Source of the DNA: Smithellaceae bacterium
Lineage (GTDB): Bacteria > Desulfobacterota > Syntrophia > Syntrophales > Smithellaceae
Direction: 5' to 3'
DNA: 64,000 bases
NCBI GenBank assembly: GCA_050008655.1
Contig: JBEKMF010000001.1
Coordinates: forward strand, 1,445 to 65,444
In this document: piece after piece, positions 2-63,797 of the stretch
Numbering within the stretch: the stretch's first letter is position 1
Layout: each line of letters begins with the position of its first letter
Program-made: the position numbers and the translations under genes
Notes under the pieces: generated by a model
What the model saw: the letters and a program-made list of their open reading frames with translations, nothing else
The model's database searches: none
Told to the model about the DNA's origin: nothing

Positions 2-286
2 CCGGAGACGTGGGCGGTGGCGATCGGCTACAGCGCTTTTTGCGTCTTCATCGAGTGCTTTTTAAATATCGGCGGCCTTCTCGTCTGGGAATATCCTTTC
101 TGGAACTTATCCTTTAAAGGCGTTTGGCTTATCTTTCTAATCGGCTACTTCCACTTCTTCTGCTGGGCTATCTTAGTGATCAGCTTAAAAAAGTTGAAAA
201 CTAAAATCATGGCCGTGAGCATCATTTACGCTGTGCCGATTTTGATGAATATAGTCGCTATCGGATTTCTGGGCTGGAAATACTAA
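2..286 (+). CDS. hypothetical integral membrane protein, C-terminal fragment (ORF open to window edge)
   Basis: The frame is open from nt 2 and the listed ORF starts at an internal GTG. The sequence is hydrophobic (W/F/I/L-rich) with 2-3 likely TM segments. No family recognised. Confidence 0.35.
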   Translation, partial: PETWAVAIGYSAFCVFIECFLNIGGLLVWEYPFWNLSFKGVWLIFLIGYFHFFCWAILVISLKKLKTKIMAVSIIYAVPILMNIVAIGFLGWKY

Positions 287-298
287 TTCCAGTTCTAT

Positions 299-318
299 AT
301 CAAAGCGCTATCTTTGAT
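299..318. terminator. hairpin between convergent genes (ATCAAAG-cgctat-CTTTGAT)
   Basis: Perfect 7-bp inverted repeat with a 6-nt loop, located between the + gene ending at 286 and the - gene ending at 335. The stem is AT-rich and the U-run is short. Confidence 0.35.
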
Positions 319-334
319 TTAGAACCGGAATAAA

Positions 335-12734: not shown

Positions 12735-12890
12735 GGCGAACTGAAGGCGGATGGTATCGCAGACACCCGTGGTAAGAGAAAAAATAAAGAACCAATAGAG
12801 TTGTCTTTCCCTGAAATAATAACTACCGATTTTTTTAGACAGATCACAAAAAAAGCGTGTAATACCATTTCGCTTTCAAAAGATTCCAGC

Positions 12891-14918
12891 CTATCCAATC
12901 CTGACCCACCGGGAGGCGGCAAGGGATGTCAAATTCGATATCGTTCCCAGAATGCGGCGTTGTTCCGGAAGCAGGTTCTTAAACTCATATTTTATGCCGA
13001 CTACACCGATCGTCTCCTCCTGGGATTTGATGGGCAGAAAACTATAGGGGATACTCGGCAGAGTCTCAGTTCCGGCACCGGAAATTTCTCCGTGAGAAAA
13101 CGACCAATGGGCAACGGCCAGATCATTTTGATTAATTTCCAAATCCGGACTGCTTCTTGACCATAGCTGCAGATCGCCTCCCTTTGCCTTGAACAGGACA
13201 AAACAAGGAACGTTGATAACCTTCTGAACATATTTGACGGTAAGATTGCTTATGTCGTTAAGAATCGTTGTTCGTAAAAAGGCCAGCGTGTTCATCGTTT
13301 CCTGAGAAAAAGTAGCCAGTCCTTCCACCAGCTGTTCGAGAGGGGGAAGAATCAAAAATTCCTTGCTCATCTCTTCGATCAGGACAACCCTCTCCAGCCT
13401 TAGTTGCAGGGCGACATTCTGTTTTTTCACAACCTTTACCAACTGCCCGACAATAATTGCAGTAAAAAGAAAAACCAGTAGGTTGATTATTTCCTTGGGA
13501 TCATTCATCGAAAAGCTGTATTTGGGCGCGGTAAAGAAAAAATCAAAAGTTAAAAGACTAAAGATCGAAGTAAATATTGACGGCCATACACCAAACAACA
13601 AGGCACTAACAATTGTAGCAATTAAATAGATATAAACTAACGAAGACGGATCAACAAAGTTCTGAAGAACAGCGTTAACCATAGTGATAATTGCAATCAT
13701 ACCCAGTGTCATTAAGTAATCGGATAACTTAAACGCTACTTGCCGATGAGGAGGACTGGGTTCTTTTTCTTTTTTTCCCACTGTCGGAGTAATGAGATGA
13801 AGTTCAAAATCACTCGAGGCATAAAGGAGACGGGAAGCAGGTGATCTTTTAAAAAATTCAATAATAGGCGAACGCAGCGGCTTACCGATCACGATCTGTG
13901 TAATATTGTTCTCCCGGGCAAAACGAATAATTTCATCGGCAATATCGTCGCCGGTAAGCGTCATGATTTTTGCTCCCAGCTCTTCCGCGAGATTCAGCGC
14001 TTCCGTTAAATAAACTTTTGCCTTACCCGAGGGCTCCGTTAAGCCACTGGATAAAACATAGACTGCATACCATTCGGCGTGCGCATCCTTAGCGATCGAA
14101 TAGGCTTTGCGTATTAATTGTTTGGCATAGGGGCTGGCAGCAATGCAGACAACAACTTTTTCCGCGGTAGGCCAGGGGCCGGGAATTGCTTTTGCCCTCA
14201 TATAATTGATCAGCTCGCTATCCATCTTGCGAGCTACAAGGGTTAACATTAGTTCGCGCAGGGCAAATAAATTGCCCCGCTGGAAAAAGTTATCTATAGC
14301 ATGGAGAGCCTGCTCGGGAATATAAACCTTGCCCTCCTTTAACCTCTGCGTCAGCTCTTCCCACGGAATGTCGATTACCTGGACCTCGTTGGCCAGGTCA
14401 AAAAACGTGTCCGGCAATGTTTCCAGCATACGGACAGAGGTGATTTTAGCAACGGCGTCGTTCATGCTTTCAAAGTGCTGGATATTGACCGTGGTGTGAA
14501 CATCAATTCCTTGTTCCAGTAATTCCTCAATATCCTGATAACGCTTCGGATGGCGGCTACCCTCGACATTAGTGTGGGCAAGTTCATCCACCAGAACAAC
14601 GGCGGGATGCCTCGTAAGAACGGCATCCAGATCCATTTCTCCGATGGAAATACCCTTATAATTAATCATCTTCCGGGGTATTACTTCCAGGCCGGCAAGA
14701 AGCAATTCCGTATCGGCGCGCTTGTGTGTTTCGACAATACCCACGACGACATCTATCCCGCGTTTCTTCAACACATGGGCATCATTGAGCATCGCATAGG
14801 TTTTACCGACACCAGGAGCGTAGCCGAGAAATATTTTTAATCTTCCCTTCCGAACATCTTCTTTTTCGACTTCTTTCAAAAGGGCATCGGGATCAGGTCT
14901 TAATTTTTTCTCTTCCAT
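12891..14918 (-). CDS. kdpD: KdpD-like sensor lacking the histidine kinase (DHp/CA) domains
   Basis: KdpD N-terminal domain with Walker A (GYAPGVGKTYAM), a USP-like domain, four TM segments and a GAF-like C-terminal region. The protein ends at 675 aa with no H-box or N/G1/G2 boxes. Confidence 0.85.
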   Translation of the reverse strand: MEEKKLRPDPDALLKEVEKEDVRKGRLKIFLGYAPGVGKTYAMLNDAHVLKKRGIDVVVGIVETHKRADTELLLAGLEVIPRKMINYKGISIGEMDLDAVLTRHPAVVLVDELAHTNVEGSRHPKRYQDIEELLEQGIDVHTTVNIQHFESMNDAVAKITSVRMLETLPDTFFDLANEVQVIDIPWEELTQRLKEGKVYIPEQALHAIDNFFQRGNLFALRELMLTLVARKMDSELINYMRAKAIPGPWPTAEKVVVCIAASPYAKQLIRKAYSIAKDAHAEWYAVYVLSSGLTEPSGKAKVYLTEALNLAEELGAKIMTLTGDDIADEIIRFARENNITQIVIGKPLRSPIIEFFKRSPASRLLYASSDFELHLITPTVGKKEKEPSPPHRQVAFKLSDYLMTLGMIAIITMVNAVLQNFVDPSSLVYIYLIATIVSALLFGVWPSIFTSIFSLLTFDFFFTAPKYSFSMNDPKEIINLLVFLFTAIIVGQLVKVVKKQNVALQLRLERVVLIEEMSKEFLILPPLEQLVEGLATFSQETMNTLAFLRTTILNDISNLTVKYVQKVINVPCFVLFKAKGGDLQLWSRSSPDLEINQNDLAVAHWSFSHGEISGAGTETLPSIPYSFLPIKSQEETIGVVGIKYEFKNLLPEQRRILGTISNLTSLAASRWVRIG

Positions 14919-17584: not shown

Positions 17585-19291
17585 TCAAAACGTTTTGCCG
17601 ATCGCCAGGAGCAGATGTTCCAGAAACGGCCCCAAAGTGAACACCGGGAAATATGTCAGCGCGCCGACAACAATGATTACACTGACCAGCATGACAATAA
17701 AAAGAATACTTGTCGTGGGAAAAGTCGCTACACTTGTCGGAACAATTTTCTTGCCCGCCAGAGCGCCGGCAATCGCCAAAGCCGGAATGATTGTGGAAAA
17801 CCTGCCGACCAGCATGGCCAAAGAAGTAGTAAGATTGTAGAAAATTGTGTTGGCATTTAGTCCGGCAAAGGCAGAGCCGTTATTGCCGGTGGTAGAGGCA
17901 TAAGCATAAATAATTTCGGATAACCCATGCGGCCCGGCATTCCCGAGGCTCGCAAGGCCTAGCGCCGTAGAAATGGCGAGGCTCGATAAGATGAGCAGTA
18001 AAATAGCCGGCGAAAGAATAATCACTACCGCCATAACCATTTCAAAGAGTTCCAGCTTTTTGCCGATTAGCTCCGGAGTCCGGCCGATCATCAATCCGGC
18101 GAGAAACATAGTGATAATGGCATAACCGAGCATGCCGATGAGACCGGTGCCCACGCCGCCGAAGATGACTTCACCAATGGCCATGTTAAACATGAGAACC
18201 AGCCCGCCGAGCGGCATCATACTATCGTGCATGCTGTTGACGGCTCCGCAGGAGGTAACAGTTGTGGACTGAGCAAATAAAACAGAATTGACCACTCCGA
18301 ATCTTACTTCCTTACCTTCCATGTTTATCCCGCTGGCAACTCCTGCTTTTTCCAGTAAGGGATTCCCCCGCGTTTCCGCCCAGGCAAAAAGGCTAAGGCC
18401 CGCAAGATAGAGAATCATCATCGCGGCAAATATTGCCAATCCCTGACGCCGTTTTTTCAACATCGCTCCCAGAGTAAAAGGCAAAGCCGCCGCAATTAAA
18501 AGAAGCCCCAGCACTTCCAAAAAATCAGTCAGCGGTGTCGGGCTCTCGAAGGGATGGGCGGAATTGGCGTTAAAGAATCCGCCTCCATTGGTGCCGATCT
18601 GCTTGATTGCTACCTGGGAAGCCACAGGACCGACAGCAATAACCTGTTTACTTCCTTCCAATGTCTGCGCCTGGACAGAGGGACTCAAAGTTTGAACTGC
18701 TCCCTGCGAAACCAGAAGAATTGACCATATAATCACCAGCGGCAGCAACACATATAAAACACAGCGGGTGAGATCAACCCAGAAGTTGCCGATCGCTGCT
18801 GCTGATTTACGGATGAACCCTCTGATTAAGGCAATGACGGCAACAATGCCAATGGCCGCGGAAGAAAAGTTTTGGAAAGTAAGGCCTAACATCTGGGTCA
18901 AGTAACTCATGGTTTGTTCTCCGCTGTAGGCCTGCCAGTTGGTGTTGGTACCGAAAGAGATAGCGGTATTGAGAGCAGTATCCCAGCGCACAGCGCCGAA
19001 TTTCTGCGGATTGAATGGAAGTATTCCCTGAATAAGCTGCAGAAAGAATAATGCCGCTATGCCGATTACATTAAATACAACCAGAGAGAGGGCATAAGTT
19101 TTCCAGGACATTTCTTCTCCCACATCAACTCTGAACAGCCGATAAAGAAGTCTTTCCACAGGAGCAACAATAGGCGCGAGAAATGAACGCTCGCCGCTGA
19201 ACACCCGAGCCATGTATTCTCCCAAAGGAAAAGCCAATAGCGTTAAGATTAACGGAAATAACGTAATGCATAACCAGTCATTCGTTGTCAT
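17585..19291 (-). CDS. kdpA: K+-transporting ATPase subunit A
   Basis: 568 aa polytopic protein with KdpA selectivity-filter-like motifs (NTNWQAYSGE, GTNGGGFF, TSCGAVNSMHDS, NNGSAFAG). Confidence 0.95.
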   Translation of the reverse strand: MTTNDWLCITLFPLILTLLAFPLGEYMARVFSGERSFLAPIVAPVERLLYRLFRVDVGEEMSWKTYALSLVVFNVIGIAALFFLQLIQGILPFNPQKFGAVRWDTALNTAISFGTNTNWQAYSGEQTMSYLTQMLGLTFQNFSSAAIGIVAVIALIRGFIRKSAAAIGNFWVDLTRCVLYVLLPLVIIWSILLVSQGAVQTLSPSVQAQTLEGSKQVIAVGPVASQVAIKQIGTNGGGFFNANSAHPFESPTPLTDFLEVLGLLLIAAALPFTLGAMLKKRRQGLAIFAAMMILYLAGLSLFAWAETRGNPLLEKAGVASGINMEGKEVRFGVVNSVLFAQSTTVTSCGAVNSMHDSMMPLGGLVLMFNMAIGEVIFGGVGTGLIGMLGYAIITMFLAGLMIGRTPELIGKKLELFEMVMAVVIILSPAILLLILSSLAISTALGLASLGNAGPHGLSEIIYAYASTTGNNGSAFAGLNANTIFYNLTTSLAMLVGRFSTIIPALAIAGALAGKKIVPTSVATFPTTSILFIVMLVSVIIVVGALTYFPVFTLGPFLEHLLLAIGKTF

Positions 19292-20980: not shown

Positions 20981-21079
20981 CTTCCTGAAGAGACCTTGAA
21001 TCACTTCTTAATTCATCTGCGCTATGATCATTTTGAATGATAATCAACAATAAATCCCGACCATGATTTTAAAAGAATT

Positions 21080-21150
21080 GTACATACGTTGAGGAAGCCG
21101 ACGACGATGCCAACAAAGATAGCATTTTGATTTAGAATTGGAATAAAGCA
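21080..21150 (+). repeat. family-2 repeat, copy a (degenerate)
   Basis: ACGTTGAGGAAGCCGACGACGATGCCAACAAAGATAGC, nearly identical to copies at 30367-30450 and 62314-62407. It lies 14 nt beyond the mltA stop. Confidence 0.8.
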
Positions 21151-21163
21151 AAGCGATTTCCTG

Positions 21164-22342
21164 TTATTTTTTGATTAACAAATACAGTTCGCCCTTTTCT
21201 TTGAGAGTGCCAGCGGTGGCCTCCGCCTTTCCTCCAAACCCGCAGAAAAGGTCAACCCGTCCGGGGCCTTTGATTGCCGAGCCCTTATCCTGGCTCAACA
21301 CAAACCGAGAAAAGCTAATCCTTTGCGAAATATTGCCTGCGGCATCGAAAACAGGCTTCTTCAGGCGGATAAACGCCAGGGCTCCTTCCGGAAAGTAGTC
21401 CGGATCCGTGGCAATCGATCTCCCTTCTGTTACCGGCACGCCCAGAGAACCCAGAGGATCTTTATCCACAAAACGAAAGAAGATATAACTCTCGTTGTAA
21501 CTTAAAATTTCATAGAGCTCCTGCTCCTGCTTTCCTTTCAGAAGGGCTTTTACGTTGCGATAGGAAGTCTCCCCGCTCTTTATTTTGCCGTGGTCCAGCA
21601 TGAATCTTGTTACACTGCGGAAAGGCCGGCCATTGGTTTGGGCAAAACTGACCGTCAATAAAGTTTCGTCGGGAAGTTTAATCTTCCCAGAGCCCTGCAC
21701 ATGCAGAAAAAACAAATCCACCGGATCGGTCACCCAAACAAGCTCCAGATTTTTCCCCCGCAATACTCCATCAACATCAATTTCCTCGCGGTTATAGTAA
21801 GGAACAAACTCACCGCCTTCACTCCGGCCAATCCTGTTTTCATTTTTAATCAAATCGCCCGGCACTCGATAAAGCGGATATTTGTATTTTTCGCTCTTCG
21901 TCAATGAGCCTTCAAGGAGCGGTTCGTAATAACCGGTAAAAAGCGTTCTCCTGTCCGCGTCAGCGCCCGCCACCATATAGATATCAAAGTCAACCGCGAT
22001 GTTTCTGTTTAAATCATCCTGCTTTTCGGAGTGACGCAGAACTTCACCAAACGCGATAAGCGTTTCCTTCAACTTCGCCGCGTCAACCGGTGGTCTATCC
22101 GCGATCAGATAGACTTTATCCCGGCCGTTAGTTTCATAATATTGGATGCTGCGATCGATCGCTAATTGCAAAGAGTCTAAATCGAGATCATCCGTAAAAT
22201 TAATATCGGAGGCGGAAACAAGAAAAAGAGGCACCAGATGTTTTTCCGGTGGTCCGGACGGAATTTTTGGCAGGGCCTTTACGCACCCGGCAAAGCAAAC
22301 GGCAATCAATAGCAATCGTATAATATTGCGCCAGTGTTTCAT
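21164..22342 (-). CDS. mltA: murein transglycosylase A
   Basis: Lipoprotein-like signal (LLIAVCFAGC), MltA domain and a C-terminal 3D domain motif (QDKGSAIKGPGRVDLFCGFG). Confidence 0.85.
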   Translation of the reverse strand: MKHWRNIIRLLLIAVCFAGCVKALPKIPSGPPEKHLVPLFLVSASDINFTDDLDLDSLQLAIDRSIQYYETNGRDKVYLIADRPPVDAAKLKETLIAFGEVLRHSEKQDDLNRNIAVDFDIYMVAGADADRRTLFTGYYEPLLEGSLTKSEKYKYPLYRVPGDLIKNENRIGRSEGGEFVPYYNREEIDVDGVLRGKNLELVWVTDPVDLFFLHVQGSGKIKLPDETLLTVSFAQTNGRPFRSVTRFMLDHGKIKSGETSYRNVKALLKGKQEQELYEILSYNESYIFFRFVDKDPLGSLGVPVTEGRSIATDPDYFPEGALAFIRLKKPVFDAAGNISQRISFSRFVLSQDKGSAIKGPGRVDLFCGFGGKAEATAGTLKEKGELYLLIKK

Positions 22343-25443: not shown

Positions 25444-25672
25444 ACTTCAGAAATAAAGTGCATAACCTAATAACCTGAGGGTCACAAGAGGTCACGTCAC
25501 CACTCAAGCTTGCAGGTCGAATGAATGAAACTCAAATATTACAAACGCAGTGCAGTAATATTTGTAAGTTGAATGCATCCCGCAAAGCAGATGATAAAGC
25601 GACCTCCCGCGGATTACCGCGCATTTCTACTTTGGCCAGAGCCGGGGAATTCCAAATCGCGGGATCGATTGC
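25410..25672 (-). repeat. family-1 modular intergenic repeat, locus 3 (mostly reverse orientation)
   Basis: The reverse complement of 25431-25525 aligns base-for-base with the long unit at 27683-27775 (ATTCGACCTGCAAGCTT...GTGACGTGACCTCTTGTGACCCTCAGGTTATTAGGTTATGCAC...CTGAAGTTTGGGTCTCATTA). Additional alpha-like hairpins occur at 25640-25672. Confidence 0.85.
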
Positions 25673-25840
25673 AACCTCGAAATATGAAGCTCACTAACAT
25701 AAAAAAAAGCCGCTGTCTACGCATAAATATTTTACTGATACATTTACAAAGCAATTAATTTTTTAGGATAATTACCGAGGATAAAGTCTTGACAGATTCA
25801 GGGCGTTTAATATACCGTGCACGCAGGTTTGGTGCTAATT

Positions 25841-26911: not shown

Positions 26912-26918
26912 TATTAAT

Positions 26919-27581: not shown

Positions 27582-27647
27582 ATCCTAAGAATCAATTTTC
27601 CGACCGGCAAAAATATACATGGCAGGCAAACTGACTAAGTATCTTTC

Positions 27648-28048
27648 AATCACGGGTATCTACGATACTCTCCGCCTTCGCGGGATAATTCGACTGCAAG
27701 CTTCAGCATGTGTGACCTCTTGTGACCTTCAGGTTATTAGGTTATGCACTCTGCTTCCGAAGCCTGTGTCTCATTACAACTTACTAATTTTCCCACATTC
27801 GTTATGAAAATTGGAGTTTCACGAACCACGGGTATGAATCCCAAAGCAAGCTGGGGATATTAGTATTGCCCCGCTAAGCTTCGCACGCGGGATAACCCCA
27901 GTAGCCTTTGCTATAGGATTAATTCAGCTAACAGATATTACAAGCGCAGCGCAGTAATATCTGAGTTTCATAAATTCGACTTGCAAGCTTCGGCGGTGAC
28001 GTGACCTCTAGGTTATGCACTCTGTTTCTGAAGCTTGAGTCTCATTAC
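27648..28048 (+). repeat. family-1 modular intergenic repeat, locus 4 (about 4 units, best-preserved copies)
   Basis: It starts CACGGGTATCTACGATACTCTCCGCCTTCGCGGGATAATTCGACTGCAAGCTTCAG, followed by the nested stem GTGACCT..GTGACCT..AGGTTAT..AGGTTAT and then CCGAAGCCTGTGTCTCATTA. A second full unit spans 27975-28048 and ends in GAGTCTCATTA. Confidence 0.9.
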
Positions 28049-29232: not shown

Positions 29233-29400
29233 GCCTATATGTCATAAAGGAACCTCAAAAGTCAAATGCTATTTGGCAATAGTTTTTGGTTGCTAAATGA
29301 CAATTTGTTTTATATTAAAAAGCCTAAATTAATGCCCCTTTGCAGTCAAAAGAGGACATCGGCTGCAAGGAACAGGCGACACTGCATGCGCCGGGCAGGC

Positions 29401-29475
29401 AGCAGGCGTATTTCTTATATGTTGAGGAACCGATGGCTCAACACACGCCGGACAGGCTTTGGCCAACAAAGATAA
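29401..29475 (+). repeat. family-2 repeat, copy d (diverged, with internal insertion)
   Basis: AGCAGGCGTAT..TATATGTTGAGGAACCGATGGCTCAAC...GGCCAACAAAGATA shares the GCAGGCGTAT, GTTGAGGAA and GCCAACAAAGATA blocks with copies a-c. Confidence 0.6.
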
Positions 29476-29505
29476 AATAATGGATGCGAATTGGAGGAGG
29501 TTTTT

Positions 29506-30219
29506 ATGGCTCTCATAGGCGTTATTTCCACCAGCTTAGTCATGGAAAAAAGCGATTTATTGAAAAAGGGCAAAGCCAGACCGATGAAAAACGAATTCGG
29601 CCGAACAGAAGTATTTCTTACCGATAAAACAGCCTTGATTTTGCGCCACGGCAATAACCCTAATAATCATATTTTGCCTCATTTGATCAACCATCGCGCC
29701 AATATGCAAGCCCTGAAAGATACCGGCGTAACCGAAATAGTCGGCATTAATTCCACCGGCTCTTTAAAAAAGAATTTATGCCCGGGAATAATCGTTGTTC
29801 CCGATGATTTTATCACGCTTACCGCCACCCCTACCATTTATCAAAATAGCACCGTTCATATCACTCCTTTATTAAACGAAAAAGTGCGACAAAAGATTAT
29901 CCAAGCGGCGCGAAACTGCGGAATTAATTTTGTCGATAGGGGAACTTATTGGCAAACGCAGGGTCCGCGACTGGAGACAAAAGCGGAAATTAAAATGATG
30001 GCTAATTTTGCCGATATTGTCGGCATGACTATGGCTAATGAAGCTGTAATCGCTCTGGAGATGGACTTGCCTTACGCGTCTGCCTGTTCCATTGATAATT
30101 TCGGTAATGGCTTACTTACTGAACCTTTAAGTATGGAAGAAATACTCGCCGGTATTAGTAAAAACGCCGATTTAATGATTCGCTTGCTGCAAAGTTATTT
30201 GAAAATTTCCTATCCGTAA
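29506..30219 (+). CDS. MTAP-family purine nucleoside / methylthioadenosine phosphorylase
   Basis: Motifs NHRANMQALKDTGV, YWQTQGPRLETKAE and ADIVGMTMANEAV. ATG 29506 follows GGAGGAGG. Confidence 0.65.
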   Translation: MALIGVISTSLVMEKSDLLKKGKARPMKNEFGRTEVFLTDKTALILRHGNNPNNHILPHLINHRANMQALKDTGVTEIVGINSTGSLKKNLCPGIIVVPDDFITLTATPTIYQNSTVHITPLLNEKVRQKIIQAARNCGINFVDRGTYWQTQGPRLETKAEIKMMANFADIVGMTMANEAVIALEMDLPYASACSIDNFGNGLLTEPLSMEEILAGISKNADLMIRLLQSYLKISYP

Positions 30220-30366
30220 AAACGACTTTGAATTATCAAGCGGTAATCCACAGGAAATTATACTAATGCCAAGTCGCCTTCAAGAGGATATCGCGACGGC
30301 AGTGAAACTCGAATTACAGTCACGCAGAAACTGGAATTCGTTAGTTGAACTGTCCCGCTTCAGTGG

Positions 30367-30450
30367 GGCAAGGAAGAGGCGACGCAGGCGTATAGTAAGG
30401 AGCCGATGACGATGCCAACAAAGATAGCCGAAGGAGGGCGGATTGGTATC
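30367..30450 (+). repeat. family-2 repeat, copy b
   Basis: GGCAAGGAAGAGGCGACGCAGGCGTATAGTAAGGAGCCGATGACGATGCCAACAAAGATAGCCGAAGGAGGGCGGATTGGTATC. Its last bases overlap the stop codon of the 30449 gene. Confidence 0.85.
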
Positions 30451-30883
30451 AAAAAGCTCCCAGTTGACAAGGCTTAATCTTTATTTGCATTGCTTCGCAG
30501 GCGGCGGAAACCTTCATGCGGGGAATATTAAACTTCTCGGCAATTTCCCAAGCGATGCTACAGGGAAGACAACCGTTTTTCAAGGCCGCTAAAATATTTT
30601 TTTTCAGAACCGGCGCGATTTCTTTGACGGGCTGCACAATTTTTTTATGCGGGCTATGACCAAAAAGACCCAATTGACATTCGATAATCTTGATATTTAA
30701 AATGTCAATGGTAATACCGATATTGTTTTGAGCTATTCCTTTTCGTCGGGCAATTTCTTCCGCGGCCGCGCAGGAAATATCATTCGCCTCGACATTCTGC
30801 AGAATCTCCTGTTTTAAAGAATCATCAACTTTGGCCTTACCAGGGTGTTTTTGAAAATATTTGTCTTGATCCAAGTGGGTCAT
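30449..30883 (-). CDS. hypothetical protein with two tandem about 60-aa repeats each ending in CQLG(L/A)F
   Basis: The internal duplication is ISCAAAEEIARRKGI...IKIIECQLGLFG versus LPCSIAWEIAEKFNI...IKIKPCQLGAF. It is the last gene of the paaK-ACT operon. Confidence 0.5.
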   Translation of the reverse strand: MTHLDQDKYFQKHPGKAKVDDSLKQEILQNVEANDISCAAAEEIARRKGIAQNNIGITIDILNIKIIECQLGLFGHSPHKKIVQPVKEIAPVLKKNILAALKNGCLPCSIAWEIAEKFNIPRMKVSAACEAMQIKIKPCQLGAF

Positions 30884-37852: not shown

Positions 37853-40099
37853 ATGGCAAAAAAAGTTTTATCTGCACCAAGCAAGCTGAAACCTAAAATT
37901 AGCAAGCCGCAATTACTCCGGGTATTGGTAGTTGAAGATTCGGAAGACGATGCTCTGCTGATAATTCGTGAACTGAAAAAAGGCGGTTACAATCCGGTGT
38001 ATGAACGGATGGAAACAGCACCAGCGATGAAAAAAGCCCTCAGCCAGAAGCCCTGGGACATCATCCTTTGCGATTATAAACTGCCGAAATTCAATGCGCC
38101 CTCAGCCATTACCGTATTAAAAGAAACAAATATCGACATCCCTCTCATCATTGTATCCGGCACTATCGGTGAAGAGACGGCTGTAGAGTGTATGCGCTCG
38201 GGCGCCAAAGATTATGTCATGAAGAGTAACTTATCGCGTCTGTGCCCCGCCATTAAAAGAGAATTAGAAGAGGCAAAAACAAGAGTCCAACGCAAGCGGG
38301 CAGAAGAGGCGCTGCAGGTGAGCGAGGAGAAATATCGTGCCATTATTGAGAACATGCAGGAGGGTTATTTTGAACTTGACCTTGCCGGTAATTTTACCTT
38401 CGTTAATGACGCTGAGTGTATAAATCTGAGATATCCTCGAGAAGAACTGATCGGAATGAACAACAGGCAGTATCAAGATGAAACAAACGCTCAAAAAATG
38501 TATCAACTCTTCAGAGAGCTTTACAGAACAGGTGAACCGGTTAAGGCATTAGATGTTGAAATTATCAGAAAAAACGGGACGAAAGGTTTTAACGAAATTT
38601 CTGTATCTCTTGTCCGGGATGCAGAAGGTAAACCGATCGGATTTTGGGGTGTTTCTCGGGATGTCACCGAGCGCAAGCAGGCCGAGCAGGCGCTACGAGA
38701 GAGCGAAGCCCAGTATCGGCTGCTGGCCGACAACATGCAAGACCAAGTATGGCTCATGGACCTGAACTTAAAACCGACATACATCAGCCCATCTGTTGAG
38801 AAGATACGGGGATACACATTTGAAGAGATTGCGCAACTTCCGCTGGATAAGCAACTCACGGCAACATCCTTACAGTCGGCGATGGAGTTTTTCTCCATTG
38901 AGATGCCCAAGGCGCTGGCAGATCCAACCTATTTCGCGCTTCCACTGGAACTAGAGTTCTACTGTAAAGACGGCTCAACTCTATGGGTGGAAAGCACGTT
39001 TAGTCAAGTCCGGGACGAAAATGGTAAGCCGTTATCCCTACTGGGCGTCGGTAGAGACATCACCGAGCGCAAGCGAACGGAGGAAGCACTGCATAAAAGC
39101 GAACATCTACATAGAGTTATCACAAATAACATTCGGGACACCGTAGCGCTGCTGGACATTAATTTTCGCGCAACATGGATCAATCCGTCAGTAACCAAAA
39201 CACTAGGATTTACTCTGGACGAACTTGCCCAAGTCCCTCTGGAGCGGCAAGTAACGCCGGATTCTATGCAGCGTATGCAGGATCTCATGCTGGAGCATCT
39301 TACAGCAGAAAATTTGACCGATAAAAACAAGGAACTTAATGTCACCGGCGAGTTTGAATTTTACCGGAAAAACGGCGATATTTTCTGGGATGAGATGAAT
39401 ATATCGCTTCTGCGGGATACAGATGGAAAGCCCACCGGCTTTCTGACGGTAGGCCGCGACATCACCGAACGCAAACGAGCGGAGGAAGAACGTAAGCAGA
39501 GCTTTGAGCGGATGAGAAAAGCTCTGAGAGCCACGGTTCAAGCCATCTCTCTGACTGTGGAAATGAAAGATCCCTATACTTCGGGTCATCAACGGCGAGT
39601 ATCCGATCTGGCCCGGGCGATAGCGACAGAAATGGGCTTATCGGCAGACCGGCGGGACTTTATCCGCACTGCCGCCACTATTCATGACATCGGTAAAATA
39701 GCCATTCCATCGGAGATACTCAGTAAACCGACAAAACTGACTGATCTGGAATTCAGTTTGATTAAAACACACGCCCAGGCAGGCTATGATATCCTGAAAG
39801 ATATCGAATTTCCCTGGCCCGTGGCCGATGTCGTCCTTCAGCATCATGAACGGATGGATGGATCCGGCTATCCTCAGGGCCTCAAGGGAGCTAATATTCT
39901 TCTGGAGGCACGGATTCTGGCCATCGCCGACGTTGTGGAAGCCATCGCTTCCCACCGTCCCTATCGTCCGGCATTTGGAATTGATATTGCCTTGAAGGAG
40001 ATTTCCGATAATAAGGGTATCCTTTATGATGCAGTTGCCGTGGATGCCTGTCTGAAATTATTTCGAGAGAAAGGCTACGGCTTGGTTTTAAAAAAGTAG
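37853..40099 (+). CDS. response regulator with REC, about 4 PAS domains and an HD-GYP (c-di-GMP phosphodiesterase-type) domain
   Basis: REC (VVEDSEDD, LCDYKLPK), repeated PAS-end signatures (GVSRDVTERK, GVGRDITERK), and HD-GYP motifs (HDIGKI, HHERMDGSGYPQGL). Confidence 0.9.
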   Translation: MAKKVLSAPSKLKPKISKPQLLRVLVVEDSEDDALLIIRELKKGGYNPVYERMETAPAMKKALSQKPWDIILCDYKLPKFNAPSAITVLKETNIDIPLIIVSGTIGEETAVECMRSGAKDYVMKSNLSRLCPAIKRELEEAKTRVQRKRAEEALQVSEEKYRAIIENMQEGYFELDLAGNFTFVNDAECINLRYPREELIGMNNRQYQDETNAQKMYQLFRELYRTGEPVKALDVEIIRKNGTKGFNEISVSLVRDAEGKPIGFWGVSRDVTERKQAEQALRESEAQYRLLADNMQDQVWLMDLNLKPTYISPSVEKIRGYTFEEIAQLPLDKQLTATSLQSAMEFFSIEMPKALADPTYFALPLELEFYCKDGSTLWVESTFSQVRDENGKPLSLLGVGRDITERKRTEEALHKSEHLHRVITNNIRDTVALLDINFRATWINPSVTKTLGFTLDELAQVPLERQVTPDSMQRMQDLMLEHLTAENLTDKNKELNVTGEFEFYRKNGDIFWDEMNISLLRDTDGKPTGFLTVGRDITERKRAEEERKQSFERMRKALRATVQAISLTVEMKDPYTSGHQRRVSDLARAIATEMGLSADRRDFIRTAATIHDIGKIAIPSEILSKPTKLTDLEFSLIKTHAQAGYDILKDIEFPWPVADVVLQHHERMDGSGYPQGLKGANILLEARILAIADVVEAIASHRPYRPAFGIDIALKEISDNKGILYDAVAVDACLKLFREKGYGLVLKK

Positions 40100-40184
40100 C
40101 TGACGGTGGCCGGTGAAGCGTCGTTCGTGAAGCGTATCTTGTGCTTCACGCTTTACAAGATGTTAGATACAAAAGGAATTTATA
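40100..40184 (+). promoter_or_regulatory. structured leader element J4 (paralogous to J3)
   Basis: GGTGAAGCG-tcgtt-CGTGAAGCG-TATCTTG-tg-CTTCACG-cttta-CAAGAT-GTTAGATAC-AAAAGGAATTTATAATG. It carries a compensatory change relative to J3 (TCTCG/CGAGA becomes TCTTG/CAAGA). Confidence 0.75.
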
Positions 40185-43100
40185 ATGACAAAAAGAACTG
40201 AATCTACCGCAAGCAAGCCGCAATCACTTCGGGTATTGATGGTTGAAGACTCGGAAGACGATGTGCTGCTGATAATCCGTGAGCTGAAAAAAGGCGGCTA
40301 CAATCCGGTGTATGAATGGGTGGAAACCGCCACCGCCATGAAAAAAGCCCTTAAGGAAAAGCAATGGGACATTATTCTTTGCGATTATAAACTGCCGAAA
40401 TTCAATGCTCCCTCCGCCATTGCCCTGTTAAAGGAAGCAAATATCGACATCCCTCTCATCATTGTATCCGGAACTATCGGTGAAGAGACTGCTGTGGAGT
40501 GCATGCGTCTGGGCGCCCATGATTATATAATGAAGAACAACTTATCCCGTCTCTGCCAAGCTATAACCAGAGAATTAGAAGGGGCAGATTCAAGAAGCAG
40601 ACGGAAACAGGCGGAAAAGTCACTCCGGGAGTCCGAAGAGAGATTCCGCAGTCTGTTCGAAAATTCCTTAATGGGAATATCTGCGGCAACGCCTAACGGA
40701 CATCTGATTCACGCCAATCCAGCGTATGCCCTGATGTACGGCTATGACAACCCGGTACAGATGATCGCTGCGATAACCGATATTGGGCATCAGCTTTATG
40801 CAAACCCGGAGGAACGGAAGGAAGTGCTACGGCTTCTAAGCAAGAAGGGCTTCATGGAACCAAGGGAAGTGGAAGTGATTAAACGCGATGGAACGCGGTT
40901 TTCTGTTCTCGTTTCAGCGCGGGAAATCAGAGATGCCGGCGGCAAACTGCTTTACTACCAAGCCGCGCACCTGGACATTACCGACCGGAAGAAATTAGAA
41001 GAAATTCTGGTAAAAGAGCGGGAGGACCTTAAACTCATTATCGATGCTTCGCCGATCAGAGTTTTCTTCAAAGACAAAGAGGGGAAATTTATACGCGTCA
41101 ATAGGATATATGCCAAGACGCTCAACATGCCGGAAGAAAATATCATAGGAAAAACGGTCTTTGACCTTTATTCCCCGCAGATTGCTCAAAGCATGACTGG
41201 CGATGACCAGGAGGTTTTCCAATCACGACGTCCTAAACTTAACATAATAGAACAATATGAATCTGCCAGCGGCATACGATGGGTGCAGACAGATAAGATT
41301 CCGATCTTTGATAAAGATGGCGTTCCAGTCGGTCTCATAGGTTTTGCACAGGACATCACCGACCGGGAGAAATTGCAGGAAATTCTGGTAAAAGAGCGGG
41401 AGGACCTTAAACTCATTATCGATGCTTCGCCGATCATAGTCTTTTATAAAGATAAGGAAGGCAGATTTATACGCGTCAATAAGATATTTGCCGACGCTCT
41501 TAATATACGTGAAGAATCTTTCGTGGGAAAAACAGTCTTCGACTTTTATTCCCCGCAGATTGCTCAAAACATGACTGACGATGACCAGGAGGTTCTCCAA
41601 TCACGGCGCCCCAAACTTAACATAATAGAACAATATGAATCGGCAAGCGGCCTACGATGGGTGCAGACAGATAAGATCCCGATTTGTGACAAAGATGGTA
41701 TCCCACTCGCTCTTATAGGCTTTGCACAGGACATCACCGACCGTAAGCAGACAGAGAGGGCTTTACGCGAGAGCGAAGAAAACTTCCATATTTCTTTGGA
41801 TAATTCCCCGCTGGGAGTCCGCATTGCGACCGCAGAAGGCGAGACACTTTATGCCAATCAGGCGGTTCTGGATATGTTCGGCTACACAAGTATTGACGAG
41901 CTGAGAAAAACACCCCTGAAAGATCGTTATACACCGGAGAGTTATGCCGATTTCCAGATAAGAAAGAAAAAAAGAGGGCGGGGTGAGTTTGCCCCATCTG
42001 AATATGAAATAAGCATCGTGAGAAAAAACGGTGAGATCCGTCATCTTCGGGTTTTCCGCAAAGAAGTCATTTGGAACGGCGCAAAACAGTTTCAGATCAT
42101 CTACCAGGACATTACCGAACGCAAACAAGCCGAGGAGACGTTGCGTGAGAGCGAGGAGAAATATCGTAATATTCTGGAAAGCATCGAAGACGGTTATTAC
42201 GAAGTTGATCTTGCCGGCAACTTAACTTTTTTCAACGATTCGCTATGCCGTATAAACGGGTATCCGCGGGAAGAATTGATGGGGATGAATAACCGGCAAT
42301 ATACAGATGAATATAACGCGAAACAAATATTTCAAGCTTTTAATGAAGTTTATAGAACGGAAAAGCCCGCTACCGGATATGAATATGAGGTTATCAGGAA
42401 AGACGGCGCCAAAGCCTATATTGCCGCCTCTATATCGTTGCGCAAAGATGCAGCGGGTAAAAAAATCGGTTTCAGAGGGATTATACATGATATCACCGAG
42501 GCCAAGAGAACGGAGGAGGCGCTAAAGAAGAGCGAAGAAAAATACCGGCTAACTTTTGCGAGCACCTCTGACATCATTTTTACGGTTGATCCAGAATTAA
42601 AAGTTTCCAATATTACTCCCAGTGTCGAGAAAGTATTGGGCTATAGCCCTGAGGAATTGATCAACAAACACTTCTCGGATTTGAATCTTATGACGCCGGA
42701 ATCACTGGAAAGAGCAATCTTCAATGTGCAGCAAGTTTTCTCCGGTCTCGATGTCCCAAACGCTATTTACGAATTTATAACAAAGGATGGAGTAAAAGGA
42801 ATAGGCGAAGTTACCGGTTCGCCAATCATTCAAGAAAATAAAATCATTGGTGTCACCTGCGTGGCCAGAGATATTACCGAACGCAAGCTGGCGGAGACGG
42901 CGCTAACCAAGAGTGAAGAAAAATACCGCAGCCTCGTGGAAAACGCGCAGGAAGGTATCTACCAGTCAGCCGTCGGATATCTTACCTTAAACCCAGCACT
43001 CGCGCATATGCTGGGCTATGATTCCCCCGAAGAAGTCATGGCAACCGTCACCGACATTGCCCGGCAGCTTTATGTCAACCCGGATGACCGCAAGAAATTG

Positions 43101-43883
43101 CTGGAAATAGTAAATGAAAAAGGTTCTATAACGAATTTTGAAACAGAGTATTATAAAAAAGACGGCAGCCGTATCTGGGTATCCATCAACATGCACGCTG
43201 TCCGGGATGATCAGGGACACATTCTCTATTACCAGGGAATTAATCAGGACATTACGGAGAAAAAGAAAATAGAAGCGGAACGGCAGGAAAATATCGCACG
43301 CTTAAGAAAATCTCTGGGCGCCACAATTAATGCCATGGCTGTAACTGTCGAAACAAGAGACCCCTACACGGCAGGCCATCAACGAAGAGTGGCTGATCTG
43401 GCGCGCGCTATTGCCACGGAGATGAATCTCACCGGCGATCAAATCGACGGCGTGCGCATGGCCAGCATGATTCATGATATCGGCAAGATATCCATTCCTT
43501 CCGAGATTCTCACCAAACCGACTAAGCTTACCAACCTGGAATTTAATTTAATTAAAACGCACCCGGCATCCGGATATAATATCCTCAAAGACATTGAGTT
43601 CCCCTGGCCCATCGCCCAGATTGTTCTGGAGCATCACGAACGTATAGATGGCTCCGGTTATCCGAACGGCCTTAAGGGAGAGCAAATCCTCCTGGAATCG
43701 AAGATTATAGCCATAGCCGATGTAGTGGAAGCCATTTCTTCGCACCGGCCCTATCGCGCCGCCTTCGGCATTGATGCGGCATTGGATGAGATCACTAAAA
43801 ACAGGGGTATTCTCTTTGATCCTGATCTTGTGGATGCCTGTCTGCGGCTTTTCCGGGAAAAGAATTATAATCTGGCCGCTTGA
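40185..43883 (+). CDS. response regulator with REC, about 8-9 PAS domains and an HD-GYP domain
   Basis: 1232 aa. The REC domain is about 85% identical to that of the upstream paralog. It has many PAS-end signatures (DITDRK, DITERK, DITEAK, DITEKK) and HD-GYP motifs (HDIGKI, HHERIDGSGYPNGL). Confidence 0.9.
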   Translation: MTKRTESTASKPQSLRVLMVEDSEDDVLLIIRELKKGGYNPVYEWVETATAMKKALKEKQWDIILCDYKLPKFNAPSAIALLKEANIDIPLIIVSGTIGEETAVECMRLGAHDYIMKNNLSRLCQAITRELEGADSRSRRKQAEKSLRESEERFRSLFENSLMGISAATPNGHLIHANPAYALMYGYDNPVQMIAAITDIGHQLYANPEERKEVLRLLSKKGFMEPREVEVIKRDGTRFSVLVSAREIRDAGGKLLYYQAAHLDITDRKKLEEILVKEREDLKLIIDASPIRVFFKDKEGKFIRVNRIYAKTLNMPEENIIGKTVFDLYSPQIAQSMTGDDQEVFQSRRPKLNIIEQYESASGIRWVQTDKIPIFDKDGVPVGLIGFAQDITDREKLQEILVKEREDLKLIIDASPIIVFYKDKEGRFIRVNKIFADALNIREESFVGKTVFDFYSPQIAQNMTDDDQEVLQSRRPKLNIIEQYESASGLRWVQTDKIPICDKDGIPLALIGFAQDITDRKQTERALRESEENFHISLDNSPLGVRIATAEGETLYANQAVLDMFGYTSIDELRKTPLKDRYTPESYADFQIRKKKRGRGEFAPSEYEISIVRKNGEIRHLRVFRKEVIWNGAKQFQIIYQDITERKQAEETLRESEEKYRNILESIEDGYYEVDLAGNLTFFNDSLCRINGYPREELMGMNNRQYTDEYNAKQIFQAFNEVYRTEKPATGYEYEVIRKDGAKAYIAASISLRKDAAGKKIGFRGIIHDITEAKRTEEALKKSEEKYRLTFASTSDIIFTVDPELKVSNITPSVEKVLGYSPEELINKHFSDLNLMTPESLERAIFNVQQVFSGLDVPNAIYEFITKDGVKGIGEVTGSPIIQENKIIGVTCVARDITERKLAETALTKSEEKYRSLVENAQEGIYQSAVGYLTLNPALAHMLGYDSPEEVMATVTDIARQLYVNPDDRKKLLEIVNEKGSITNFETEYYKKDGSRIWVSINMHAVRDDQGHILYYQGINQDITEKKKIEAERQENIARLRKSLGATINAMAVTVETRDPYTAGHQRRVADLARAIATEMNLTGDQIDGVRMASMIHDIGKISIPSEILTKPTKLTNLEFNLIKTHPASGYNILKDIEFPWPIAQIVLEHHERIDGSGYPNGLKGEQILLESKIIAIADVVEAISSHRPYRAAFGIDAALDEITKNRGILFDPDLVDACLRLFREKNYNLAA
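40976..41731 (+). repeat. in-frame tandem duplication of a PAS module (2 x 378 nt)
   Basis: The protein repeat runs ITDR(K/E)KL(E/Q)EILVKEREDLKLIIDASPI...GFAQDITDR. A run of about 58 nt (GAAATTCTGGTAAAAGAGCGGGAGGACCTTAAACTCATTATCGATGCTTCGCCGATCA) is identical in both copies; the remainder is about 85% identical. Confidence 0.85.
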
Positions 43884-52830: not shown

Positions 52831-52932
52831 TAATGAGACCCAAGCTTCAGAAGCGAAGCACATAACCTAAAGGTCATCTGCGACTGAGCTTGCAGGTCGA
52901 ATTATCCCCGAAGCGAAGCGGAGTGGGATAAT
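52831..52932 (-). repeat. family-1 repeat, locus 5: single complete unit inside the hdr/flx operon
   Basis: The minus strand reads ATTATCCCACTCCGCTTCGCTTCGGGGATAATTCGACCTGCAAGCTCAG...GATGACCTTTAGGTTATGTGC...CTGAAGCTTGGGTCTCATTA. It lies between the hdrB stop (52956) and the flxB-like start (52809). Confidence 0.9.
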
Positions 52933-52955
52933 ATCAATATTCCTCCATAAATATA

Positions 52956-61885: not shown

Positions 61886-62313
61886 TTTCTATTCTCCATT
61901 TATAGAAGATTAAAAAATAAAAAACCCCAAATCCTTTCGGGACTGGAGTTTCATGTTATCTGAAATCGTTCATCTGTTACCCTCGCATTATTAAAGGGAA
62001 TGACTGAACCAATTAAAATTAATTAATTTTTAAAATACCAAATTTCTAATAATTTACAAGATATAAATTCCTCTTGTTCAACTTTTCAACTCAATACTGA
62101 ACAAATTTTCTAAATTTTCTCTGTTATTAGGAACAGCAGGTCTTGAAATATCAGTTCTATTTCCATTTCCCATCCGCTATTTTGCATTTGTTTCCCGGAT
62201 TCACCCTAAAGGTTACTTCGCCCGCCTACGCGGGAATGACTACTTTTGTAGCTTTTAGTAATATCCACTTCGCCATTATTTTATATCATTTCGATTTCAA
62301 AGGATAACCAGGC

Positions 62314-62407
62314 GGCAAGGAGGAGGCTCCGCAGGCGTATATGAATATACGTTGAGGAAGCTGACGACGAAGCCAACAAAGTTAGCCAAAGAAAGCGGAA
62401 TGGTATC
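62314..62407 (+). repeat. family-2 repeat, copy c
   Basis: GGCAAGGAGGAGGCTCCGCAGGCGTATATGAATATACGTTGAGGAAGCTGACGACGAAGCCAACAAAGTTAGCCAAAGAAAGCGGAATGGTATC. It ends 8 nt before the stop codon of the ntrC-type gene. Confidence 0.85.
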
Positions 62408-62414
62408 GGGCACA

Positions 62415-63797
62415 CTATTCCCGCTCAAAGGCTATCCCATACTTTTCCAGCTTCCGTTCAAAGGTCGGCCGGGAAATTCCCAATATCTCGCAAATTTCCC
62501 CTTTATTTTTATTCGTTTCTTTAATGACCTTTCGAATGTAGCGCTCTTCCACTTCATCCAGGGTCAGAAATTTGCCCAACTCGGCAGACGTAAATACATC
62601 TGTTGTTGCCTCCTTTGGCTGCTGGGCTGTCTCATCCTTACCGAGCTCGGGAAAATCATTTTTGCCCAAGACCTGCCCCTTAGCCACAACACAGGCCCGG
62701 ACCAATAAATTCTCCAACTCGCGGATATTGCCAGGCCAGCCATAGTTCATGAATATTTCCATCATTTCGTCCGAGATGCCGATAATTTTCTTGTGCAAAT
62801 CCAAATTAATTTTTGCCAGCAAATAATCAAGCAGGGGAGGAATATCTTGACGGCGCGTGCGCAACGGCGGAATATTTATCGATACAATATTCAAGCGATA
62901 ATACAGATCATCGCGGAATTTTCCTTCTTTCACCAGAGCCTTTAAATCCTTATTGGTCGCGGCCATAATCCGGGCGTTAACCTTGACTTTATCTTTACCC
63001 CCTACCCGATCAAATTCCATTTCCTGCAAAACACGCAAAAGCTTTGCCTGCAGGTTCACGGACATTTCGCTGATTTCATCCAGAAAGACCGTGCCGTAAC
63101 GGGCCAGCTCAAACTTGCCCAGTTTGCGGGCAACTGCACCGGTAAACGAACCCTTTTCATGACCGAATAATTCCGACTCCAGAAGTGTCTCGACAATCGC
63201 CGAACAATTAACGGCAATAAATGGTTCGTCGGGCGACGTATTATGATGGATGACTTTGGCGATTAATTCTTTGCCCGTACCGCTTTCCCCCTGAATGAGA
63301 ACGGTAGTCCGGCTTTGTGAAACTACTCCTATCGTTTTAAATATTTCCCGCATTTCATTGCCGGTGCCGACAATATCGCCGACCCGGAAATTGCGCGAAG
63401 GCTCCATCAAAAGCCCGTCAATCTTTTTTTCCATTTCCAGGGATTTCAGGGCCTTTTTAATCGCGATATCCAGTTCATCAACATTGACCGGTTTATGAAT
63501 ATAATCGAAGGCTCCGCTTTTCATGGCGTTAATCGTTGTTTCCATGTCATGATAAGCGGTAATCATAATCACTTTTATGTTTTCATTTTCTTCCTTCAGG
63601 TCTTCCAGCACGGAGAAGCCATCGACATCCGGCAGTCGAATATCTAAAATCACAACGTCTGCCGGATTTTGCACATACTTATTCAGGCCTTCCGTGCCGC
63701 TTTGAGCGGTTTCCACAGTGTAGCCTTCCTCAGTCAGGTACAAATCTAGAGTTTCCCTGATCGAAGCATCATCATCAATAACCAGAATTTTGGACAT
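62415..63797 (-). CDS. sigma-54-dependent response regulator (NtrC/AtoC family)
   Basis: REC (ILVIDDD, ILDIRLPD), AAA+ sigma-54 activator motifs (GESGTGKE, GAFTGA-like GSFTGA, ESELFGH) and a C-terminal Fis-type HTH. Confidence 0.9.
   Translation of the reverse strand: MSKILVIDDDASIRETLDLYLTEEGYTVETAQSGTEGLNKYVQNPADVVILDIRLPDVDGFSVLEDLKEENENIKVIMITAYHDMETTINAMKSGAFDYIHKPVNVDELDIAIKKALKSLEMEKKIDGLLMEPSRNFRVGDIVGTGNEMREIFKTIGVVSQSRTTVLIQGESGTGKELIAKVIHHNTSPDEPFIAVNCSAIVETLLESELFGHEKGSFTGAVARKLGKFELARYGTVFLDEISEMSVNLQAKLLRVLQEMEFDRVGGKDKVKVNARIMAATNKDLKALVKEGKFRDDLYYRLNIVSINIPPLRTRRQDIPPLLDYLLAKINLDLHKKIIGISDEMMEIFMNYGWPGNIRELENLLVRACVVAKGQVLGKNDFPELGKDETAQQPKEATTDVFTSAELGKFLTLDEVEERYIRKVIKETNKNKGEICEILGISRPTFERKLEKYGIAFERE

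Follow-up and report, generated by a model that had tools for sequence, protein, structure and literature searches.

A ∼123 bp repeat with features of a MITE at gene 3′ ends in Smithella-type Deltaproteobacteria

The repeat element described here is present in a 64,000-nucleotide stretch of DNA from a Smithellaceae bacterium (assembly GCA_050008655.1, contig JBEKMF010000001.1, positions 1,445 to 65,444 of the forward strand), termed the window below. It is very probably (about 0.85) a ∼123 bp non-autonomous DNA transposon restricted to Smithella/Smithellaceae-type Deltaproteobacteria. The repeat apparently represents a family of miniature transposable elements with inverted repeats (MITEs) that is of a known kind and new to description. 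It is small and carries no transposase gene, it has terminal inverted repeats (TIRs) and it is flanked by a target site duplication. Many dispersed copies are found per genome, and the copies show presence/absence polymorphism at orthologous sites. Within the literature collection searched, no paper connects MITEs with Smithella or Syntrophus.

An earlier, sequence-only reading of the window had described four copies of a shorter repeat close to gene 3′ ends and had proposed that it encodes a hydrophobic peptide, with a non-coding element as the alternative. The alternative is right but incomplete, as the element appears to be a mobile MITE with TIRs and a TNA duplication. The peptide proposal did not hold and is discussed further below.

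The repeat unit and its copies in the window

The unit is a ∼123 nt imperfect palindrome, ATACCAnTTCGCTTTC…GAAAGCGAAnTGGTAT, whose ends pair and which folds as a single long hairpin. An alignment of copies gives a 123 nt consensus. Its left part reads ATACCAnTTCGCTTTCTTTGGCTAACTTTGTTGGCWTCGTCGTCGGCTTCCTCAACGTAT-loop, and the right part, after the loop, reads ATACGCCTGCGGAGCCTCCTCCTTGCCGCCKCGTTATCCTTTGAAAGCGAAnTGGTAT. Full copies span 113–163 nt; the 70–95 nt first given for the unit is corrected accordingly. When the window sequence was re-read, all four copies reported previously (a to d) were found where they had been placed. Two further members, copy e and a right-end remnant, had not been listed, and a 16 nt fragment suggested at 12744–12759 is below significance in both nhmmer and covariance-model searches. 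The 64 kb window contains one intact element, three damaged elements, one stem-only derivative and one end fragment, as follows.

62283..62406, minus strand: copy c, 124 nt, the sole intact full-length element of the window (nhmmer model positions 2-122, E 2.6e-35; covariance model R1 129 bits, positions 1-123)
30266..30449, minus strand: copy b, a full element split by a nested foreign repeat (nhmmer positions 12-92; the right end, 30266-30295, detected separately by end-specific nhmmer)
21077..21144, minus strand: copy a, which retains only the left half and breaks off at the apical loop (nhmmer positions 8-67, E 6e-13)
~29332..29497, minus strand: copy d, an old full-length copy, now degenerate and carrying small palindromic insertions (nhmmer positions 11-122 across 155 nt, E 4.5e-08)
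286..331, no strand assigned: copy e, a stem-only derivative with 83 model positions deleted (covariance model R1 E ~0.007 on both strands; the two ends match and the interior is deleted)
~12862..12886, minus strand: right-end remnant (…TCTTTTGAAAGCGAAATGGTAT; end-specific nhmmer E 0.0026)

A 24 nt core, GACGACGAWGCCAACAAAGWTAGC, occurs three times in the window compared with 0.00 expected occurrences, and a 13 nt core, GCCAACAAAGWTA, four times compared with 0.23 expected. A repeat finder places copies a to d in families D10 and D12.

Copy number and host range

A scan of one genome per species looked for exact matches to the 22-mer TAWCTTTGTTGGCWTCGTCRTC, given in the orientation of the upstream genes. 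At least 117 stretches match, where ∼0.5 would be expected by chance. Among the matches listed, the stretches come from ∼46 species genomes (assemblies), with several stretches per genome, and all but one are labelled as Smithella, Smithellaceae, Syntrophaceae, Syntrophus or delta-/Deltaproteobacteria metagenome-assembled genomes (MAGs). The lone outlier among these listed matches, L100 (JAHJSF010000170.1), is a contig of a MAG labelled Nitrospinota and may represent either a mis-binned contig or a rare transfer.

Collection of copies by nhmmer, which the sequence-only reading had recommended, was carried out with a profile searched against 0.94 Mb, comprising the fetched loci and the window. 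This detected 155 copies, 72 of them full length. The copies are largely intergenic: 139 of the 155 do not overlap any open reading frame (ORF) of at least 90 amino acids by more than 30 nt, and 16 are inside genes. A MITE-derived segment is found in frame within a Zn-ADH/quinone-oxidoreductase-like ORF in loci L043 and L116, from two genomes, antisense to the element. The segment reads …VALGENISGKEEATQSCSTIRRGADDDANKDNRMNAPWQIGDVV… in L116, and the L043 version is shorter.

Target site duplication and filled and empty sites

The flanks of the element follow the pattern T-N-[A TACC…GGTA T]-N-A, where the element proper is TACC…GGTA and is bordered by a 3 bp TNA direct repeat. Flank statistics were compiled from 69 full copies, de-duplicated for orthology. 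TNA is present on both sides in 34 of these, and in 23 of the 34 the central nucleotide N is identical on the two sides; the permutation mean is 9.5 and the maximum in 10,000 permutations is 19. N is complementary in just three. As it is identity and not complementarity of N that is favoured, the flanks represent a direct duplication of the target and not an extension of the inverted repeat.

Insertion is also evident from a comparison of protein-anchored orthologous loci from metagenomes. Downstream of the stop codon of a gene encoding a 144-amino-acid protein, unique sequence follows directly (TAA/TGA TCTTT…) in six contigs (L121, L123-L126 and L137). The same site is filled by copy b in the window and by a member of a different subfamily in L122, where the junction reads TGA|TACC…GGTA|TCA TCTCTT compared with the empty TGA TCTTT. 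The stop codon of a neighbouring ACT-domain gene provides a second example. A full element with a perfect TAA/TAA duplication is present there in L123 and a stem-only derivative, analogous to copy e, is found at the same place in L124; no insertion is present there in the window, L121, L122, L125 or L137. Copy d, in contrast to copy b, is shared with the related metagenome contig L137, insertions included. As the copy b site is empty in L137, copy d is the older of the two.

Two other approaches were less informative. A BLAST of junctions within the fetched loci yielded four further filled/empty candidates; their junctions, at 76–86% identity, are too diverged for a clean reading of the duplication, and the protein-anchored metagenome loci served better. 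Look-ups of exact proteins for strain variants of window genes returned same-sample contigs only.

Location at stop codons

The proximity of copies a, b and c to the stop codons of minus-strand genes, as originally reported, is confirmed for the downstream location; the distances are 19, 0 and 8 nt, where 0–14 nt had been given. The three upstream neighbours named at that time are also confirmed. Copy c lies 8 nt 3′ of the TAG stop codon of an NtrC-type gene (62415..63797), which is assigned as a sigma-54 activator from precomputed Pfam hits on the matching contig. Copy b starts on the final A of the stop codon TGA (30449-30451) in the 144-amino-acid protein gene, whose product has no Pfam match. 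Copy a is 19 nt 3′ of the TAA stop codon of the MltA gene (21164..22342; Pfam MltA). TAA borders copy e on both sides (284-286 and 331-333), and the first of these is the stop codon of a plus-strand ORF ending at 286. The right-end remnant is a few nt 3′ of the TAG stop codon of the minus-strand gene 12891..14918. Copy d is situated in the divergent region between a thioredoxin gene and a PNP_UDP_1 gene.

For ORFs of at least 80 codons, the left duplication serves as the stop codon in 14 of the 69 full copies; the right duplication, which would belong to a convergent gene, does so in two. In the window, the left duplication falls on the stop codon in copy b (TGA) and copy e (TAA). In 27 copies an ORF terminates no more than 12 nt from the left end, and in seven no more than 12 nt from the right end (binomial p 0.0008). 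The overall orientation relative to co-directional neighbours is 39:28.

TAA and TGA are themselves TNA sequences. Insertion on a stop codon therefore leaves the protein unchanged, as the TNA duplication regenerates the stop. Such insertions would be tolerated, and this would explain why copies are found so close to gene 3′ ends. The one-sided orientation is not predicted by symmetric insertion, and the overall orientation ratio is only 39:28; we therefore infer that selection may act after insertion. Proximity of start codons to the element was discarded as evidence, as longest-ORF calling over-extends the starts.

Secondary structure and covariation

The two halves of the element are inverted repeats, so that each strand can form a single long, imperfect hairpin. 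The structure was derived by hand from single-sequence folds and then checked by pair counts on 40 distinct copies. Standard pairs are found in 89% of cells, compared with 35–44% when the partners are slid by one to three columns. Double-sided changes are present in 18 of 41 pairs, whereas shuffles give 7.9±1.6 and none of 500 reaches the observed value. The terminal 16 bp are paired in 86% of cells, and 12 of the 16 pairs covary. The changes define subfamilies with coherent differences in the two arms, …CAATTCGCTTTC/GAAAGCGAAATG…, …CAAGTCGCATTC/GAATGCAACTTG… and …CAATTCTAAATCAAAG/CTTTGATTTAGAAATG…; a further pair of subfamilies differs at the ends, TAAC…GTTA versus TATC…GATA.

The two strands are not equivalent. 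Full copies reach a mean minimum free energy of -37 kcal/mol when folded as the gene strand and of -46 kcal/mol as the opposite strand; shuffles give -24 kcal/mol. In 59 of 61 copies the strand that folds better is the antisense one relative to the usual upstream gene, and transition mismatches of the terminal stem form wobble pairs on the antisense strand in 72 cases versus 27 on the gene strand, although the copies behind these counts are not phylogenetically independent. G·T pairs stabilize DNA hairpins as well. The asymmetry is treated as an unexplained observation and not as proof of an RNA function.

RNAalifold applied to a MAFFT alignment of 61 copies gave only a trivial 6 bp helix. This result was rejected, as the subfamily ends are aligned out of register. 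Folds of the shorter intervals of the sequence-only reading gave weak z-scores, one arm being cut off by those intervals. A search of Rfam over copy c gave no match at the gathering score or at E≤1.

Mobilization

A TNA-specific DDE transposase of the type found in the IS1031 group of the IS5 family would mobilize the element in trans. Copies would subsequently decay by truncation, by internal deletion down to the stem and by nested insertion of other small repeats. When transcribed within a 3′ untranslated region (UTR), the hairpin might affect the fate of the mRNA in an orientation-dependent manner, and such an effect would account for the predominance of one orientation at stop codons.

Members of the IS1031 group of insertion sequences (ISs) prefer 5′-TNA-3′ and exclusively produce a 3 bp direct repeat (PMC12016507), as is seen with the Smithella-type repeat. 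The group is the best mechanistic analogy for the mobilizing enzyme and is offered as such, not as a demonstrated ancestor. A parent IS was sought in the 0.94 Mb as TACC…GGTA end pairs with at least 16 of 20 complementary bases at a distance of 300–4000 bp, and by end-specific nhmmer. The only perfect end pair, in L101, consists of a solo 20 nt end and an ordinary MITE around normal genes and was rejected as a parent, and no matching pair of ends in the 0.94 Mb encloses a transposase. No transposase is present among the scanned window genes next to copies a, b, d and e, and the neighbour of copy c is the NtrC-type regulator.

Several observations weigh against a DDE-type MITE. The 0.94 Mb searched yielded no autonomous element that shares these ends, and the TACC… termini are unlike the inverted repeat of ISLrh, GAACCTGTCTAGTATCT (GAACCTG…), the only IS1031-group repeat compared (PMC12016507). 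TNA is found on both sides of only about half of the copies, and N differs in a third of those. The contigs compared for filled and empty sites are only 60–85% identical, and their junctions are not all clean. Symmetric insertion at TNA does not by itself account for the 14:2 orientation bias at stop codons. Past the first 5–6 nt, the terminal repeats vary freely provided that complementarity stays. This is unusual for a transposase-binding site and could indicate either a mechanism that depends on structure or selection acting on an RNA.

Alternative interpretations

The repeat might instead be a host-functional structured RNA module that resides in 3′ UTRs, has multiplied as a repeat and persists because its RNA structure is under selection, for example as an mRNA stabilizer, an RNase processing site or a modulator of termination or recycling at the stop codon. 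This would be compatible with a MITE origin through domestication; as an account of the family it is unlikely. The compensatory changes along the entire hairpin are consistent with it, as are the strand asymmetry in folding (59 of 61) and in wobble pairs (72 versus 27) and the bias at stop codons (14:2 exactly at the stop, 27:7 within 12 nt). The gene strand also displays CCTCCTCC, which is anti-Shine-Dalgarno-like, where the other strand has AAGGAGGAGG. There are precedents as well: ERIC sequences at Yersinia gene 3′ ends change transcript levels via an RNase E site, and Correia elements are cut by RNase III (PMC10969869). The strand that folds better, however, would not be transcribed with the upstream gene, which is a poor fit to a simple role in the 3′ UTR, and the asymmetry counts carry the phylogenetic dependence noted above. 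Complementarity could also be maintained by arm-to-arm correction in a DNA palindrome, with no selection on RNA. Moreover, many copies are truncated, internally deleted or interrupted, copy d lies in a divergent promoter region, 16 of 155 copies are inside genes, the overall orientation to co-directional neighbours is just 39:28, and copy c has neither a terminator-like T tract nor a promoter match.

Two more unconventional schemes, taken together, are rather improbable. In one, the repeat would go beyond selfish DNA: a hairpin of a single orientation would be targeted to or retained at stop codons, where it would influence either the 3′ end of the mRNA or termination and the recycling of ribosomes, with compensatory evolution preserving its stem. 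In the other, mobility would depend on structure, with recognition of only the terminal TACC and the hairpin, and would nevertheless generate a TNA duplication. If true, the latter would be a new mobilization route for bacterial MITEs.

It is very doubtful that the repeat is a hairpin-dependent element mobilized as a single strand, such as a REP/RAYT or an IS200/IS605-derived palindrome-associated sequence, and not a DDE-type MITE. Such an element would explain why only the first 5–6 terminal nucleotides are fixed while the remaining stem is free as long as it pairs. The wobble-pair strand asymmetry, the orientation bias relative to genes and the nested 67 nt repeat of copy b, which enters one fixed site as single-strand transposons do, point in the same direction. 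Elements of this type, however, make no target site duplications, and here a TNA duplication is supported statistically and is seen in the filled/empty comparisons. Both flanks are equally constrained, and no Y1 transposase is seen beside the window copies. With 123 nt, the repeat also far exceeds REPs, which are described as palindromes of 20–40 nt with a GTAG or CGTC tag at one end (PMC3733652); these end tags are absent here.

Open reading frames in the repeat

The hydrophobic mini-ORFs quoted in the sequence-only reading do exist, and one lies over copy c.

62297..62413, minus strand: 38-amino-acid mini-ORF with a GTG start, a by-product of the T-rich left arm and not a conserved gene

Under the proposal, copies would code for a small hydrophobic peptide, acting as a type I toxin or else as a micropeptide whose translation is coupled to the stop codon upstream. 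The left arm is conserved and in one frame reads as hydrophobic …A(N/I)FVG(I/F)VVGFLNV…. Some ATG, GTG or TTG is found upstream in frame in 71 of 114 distinct copies, and in copies b and c the ORF starts at or beside the upstream stop codon. The check proposed at the time was whether substitutions preserve the frame and the hydrophobicity, with randomly distributed stops and frameshifts taken as a sign of a non-coding repeat. Scattered starts and stops and frame-shifting indels are indeed what is found, and start, stop and frame are not conserved over the 114 copies. The proposed frame has no ATG, GTG or TTG in 43 of them. Start positions are distributed over more than 30 offsets, the biggest class (19) being a TTG in the CTTTGG of the repeat itself, and stop positions over ∼40 offsets. 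A second reading frame is almost equally open.

Indels further disrupt the frame. Loop lengths differ by 1–2 nt and an extra 1 nt indel is present in 8 of 40 copies, which shifts the frame of the C-terminal half; the post-loop ‘peptides’ appear in three unrelated frames, …YTPAEPPPCRLVIL, …IRLRSLLLAASLSFE… and …KIRLVASSLPPRYP…. The most variable positions of the core are first and second codon positions. Among copies identified without the 22-mer, GGC is followed by ATC, TTC, TGC, AGC, GTC, CGC, GGC, ACC or TCC, and the changes include Ile/Phe to Cys, Ser, Arg, Gly or Thr. Where the ‘N-terminal’ residues of the left arm vary (IPLSLAN, TKSHSLAN or LLNQSAI), the matching changes are compensatory ones in the right arm and not conservative amino-acid changes. 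The element supplies no Shine-Dalgarno sequence on the ORF strand, and the copy c mini-ORF is called as a gene neither in the Joint Genome Institute (JGI) contig nor by the gene callers of the source assemblies. The hydrophobic character is attributable to T at second codon positions in the T-rich left arm, and a conserved peptide is so improbable that it can be set aside.

Nested repeats and other features

The repeat that splits copy b is unrelated to the MITE.

30300..30366, minus strand: nested 67 nt hairpin repeat (CCCCRCTGAAGCGGGACAGTTCAACTAACGAATTCCAGTT…AATTCGAGTTTCACTG) in the right arm of copy b

It occurs once in the window. The insertion site is CCTTGCC^, with flanking TGCC, and the same position in the MITE is occupied in 13 of 15 copies in the loci. 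This site-specific insertion suggests a different, possibly single-strand, mobilization mechanism. The 67 nt repeat is also found in L004, L008, L020, L040, L042, L048, L070, L084, L090, L093 and L096.

Another repeat family is present in the window at 9484-9741, 25431-25574, 27712-28048 and 52831-52934 and is presumably the one that the sequence-only reading counted as its first. It consists of a hairpin followed by GAGTCTCAT(TA), is found on both strands and is sometimes arranged in tandem at a spacing of 112–114 nt. Inverted copies flank a 2.2 kb segment (25431-27776). The 67 nt repeat ends in a related motif, GAGTTTCAC, and the two may belong to one superfamily. A third small repeat of ∼85 nt (…GTAAGTTACCGCCTGACAGGCGGTAATTACCGGTAAGGTAAA…TTATTATGCGCTCCCCTGCGGGATGCGYTTCCGG) has inserted into the MITE left arm, where it separates the terminal ∼13 nt from TCTTTGG. 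At least 11 MITE copies from different genomes carry it (L122 at 1633-1720, and L003, L010, L012, L031, L035, L038, L081, L085, L098 and L118). Small G + C-rich palindromes, CCCGGCGYATGCCGGG-like, are found inside some MITE copies, namely copy d (29401-29475), its L137 orthologue and a copy in L049, and add a further level of nested micro-repeats.

Element ends show two further sequence features. The PNP_UDP_1 gene (ATG at 29506) has its Shine-Dalgarno sequence, GGAGGAGG, at the position expected for the terminal GGTAT of copy d (29487-29508; …GCGAATTGGAGGAGG), and the same overlap is present in L137. The end of copy d may have been reshaped into the ribosome-binding site of this gene. The right end together with a TAA duplication reads TGGTATAAn (TGATATAAA at copy c, 62283-62292, and likewise in many loci), which resembles an outward-facing extended -10 element. 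A promoter and terminator scan around copy c, which also scores the -35 hexamer, found nothing.

The sole Rfam match in the window at the gathering score is a c-di-AMP riboswitch (ydaO/yuaA type, RF00379) at 19526-19667 on the minus strand (89.5 bits, E 1.3e-19), upstream of the minus-strand ORF 17585..19291. The region 37853-43883 contains two large ORFs of 748 and 1232 amino acids with many diverged repeat units of ∼380 nt (families D1-D7); judged by their sequence, the products look like multi-PAS sensor kinases.

Implications

Smithella and Smithellaceae are key syntrophic degraders of alkanes and fatty acids and are known almost solely from MAGs. Their annotators gain a defined repeat that can be masked, with a consensus, a structure and a TNA duplication. 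The repeat explains spurious small ORFs and, probably, some contig breaks, and a false lead is removed in that it contains no toxin or micropeptide family. It also provides a natural example of how a TNA-targeting element can colonize stop codons harmlessly, the duplication rebuilding the stop. Two aspects represent a modest puzzle of MITE–host interaction: an orientation at stop codons that is one-sided, and stems that covary freely.

Comparison with known repeat elements

Type I toxin–antitoxin loci of the Hok, Ldr, Ibs and TisB kind are likewise multi-copy and conserved at the nucleotide level, with a readable hydrophobic ORF of 30–40 amino acids. In the Smithella-type repeat, however, the ORF has no conserved start, stop or frame, there is no synonymous bias and conservation tracks base pairing. 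The repeat also differs from RAYT-associated REP and BIME sequences in its length of 123 nt and its ATACC…GGTAT ends, and it is not classed as a REP. Its closest likeness among known ISs, the IS1031 group, shares the TNA preference and the 3 bp direct repeat and differs in its termini (TACC… versus GAACCTG… of ISLrh) and in that no full-length parent appears in the 0.94 Mb.

The in-frame segments in L043 and L116 are reminiscent of Rickettsia palindromic elements (RPEs) and intragenic ERICs, which are palindromic repeats carried in frame in protein genes. Unlike with RPEs, the intragenic location is the exception here.

ERIC/IRU elements of the Enterobacteriaceae and Vibrionaceae are ∼125 nt in size and have variants with internal insertions. 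As with the Smithella-type repeat, they are imperfect palindromes present in multiple copies, mainly intergenic and occasionally intragenic, often in transcribed 3′ regions, with incidental ORFs and no known cognate transposase; their effects on transcripts are orientation-dependent (PMC10969869). They belong to another host lineage and, compared by architecture and function alone, have no apparent sequence relationship to the present repeat, which differs in its TNA duplication, in copies often located exactly on a stop codon and in compensated terminal stems across subfamilies.

Correia elements duplicate TA, whereas TNA is duplicated here. These repeat-enclosed elements, which are MITEs of Neisseria, are similar in size (∼100–200 bp), have long TIRs and are orphans of a transposase (PMC10969869). 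They are present in hundreds of copies, carry promoters and an IHF site, and form transcribed hairpins that are processed by RNase III (PMC10969869); copy c, in contrast, shows no promoter match. The likeness is one of architecture and function and not of sequence homology. By analogy, a repeat that duplicates TNA can also be likened to the PIF/Harbinger-Tourist MITEs of eukaryotes.

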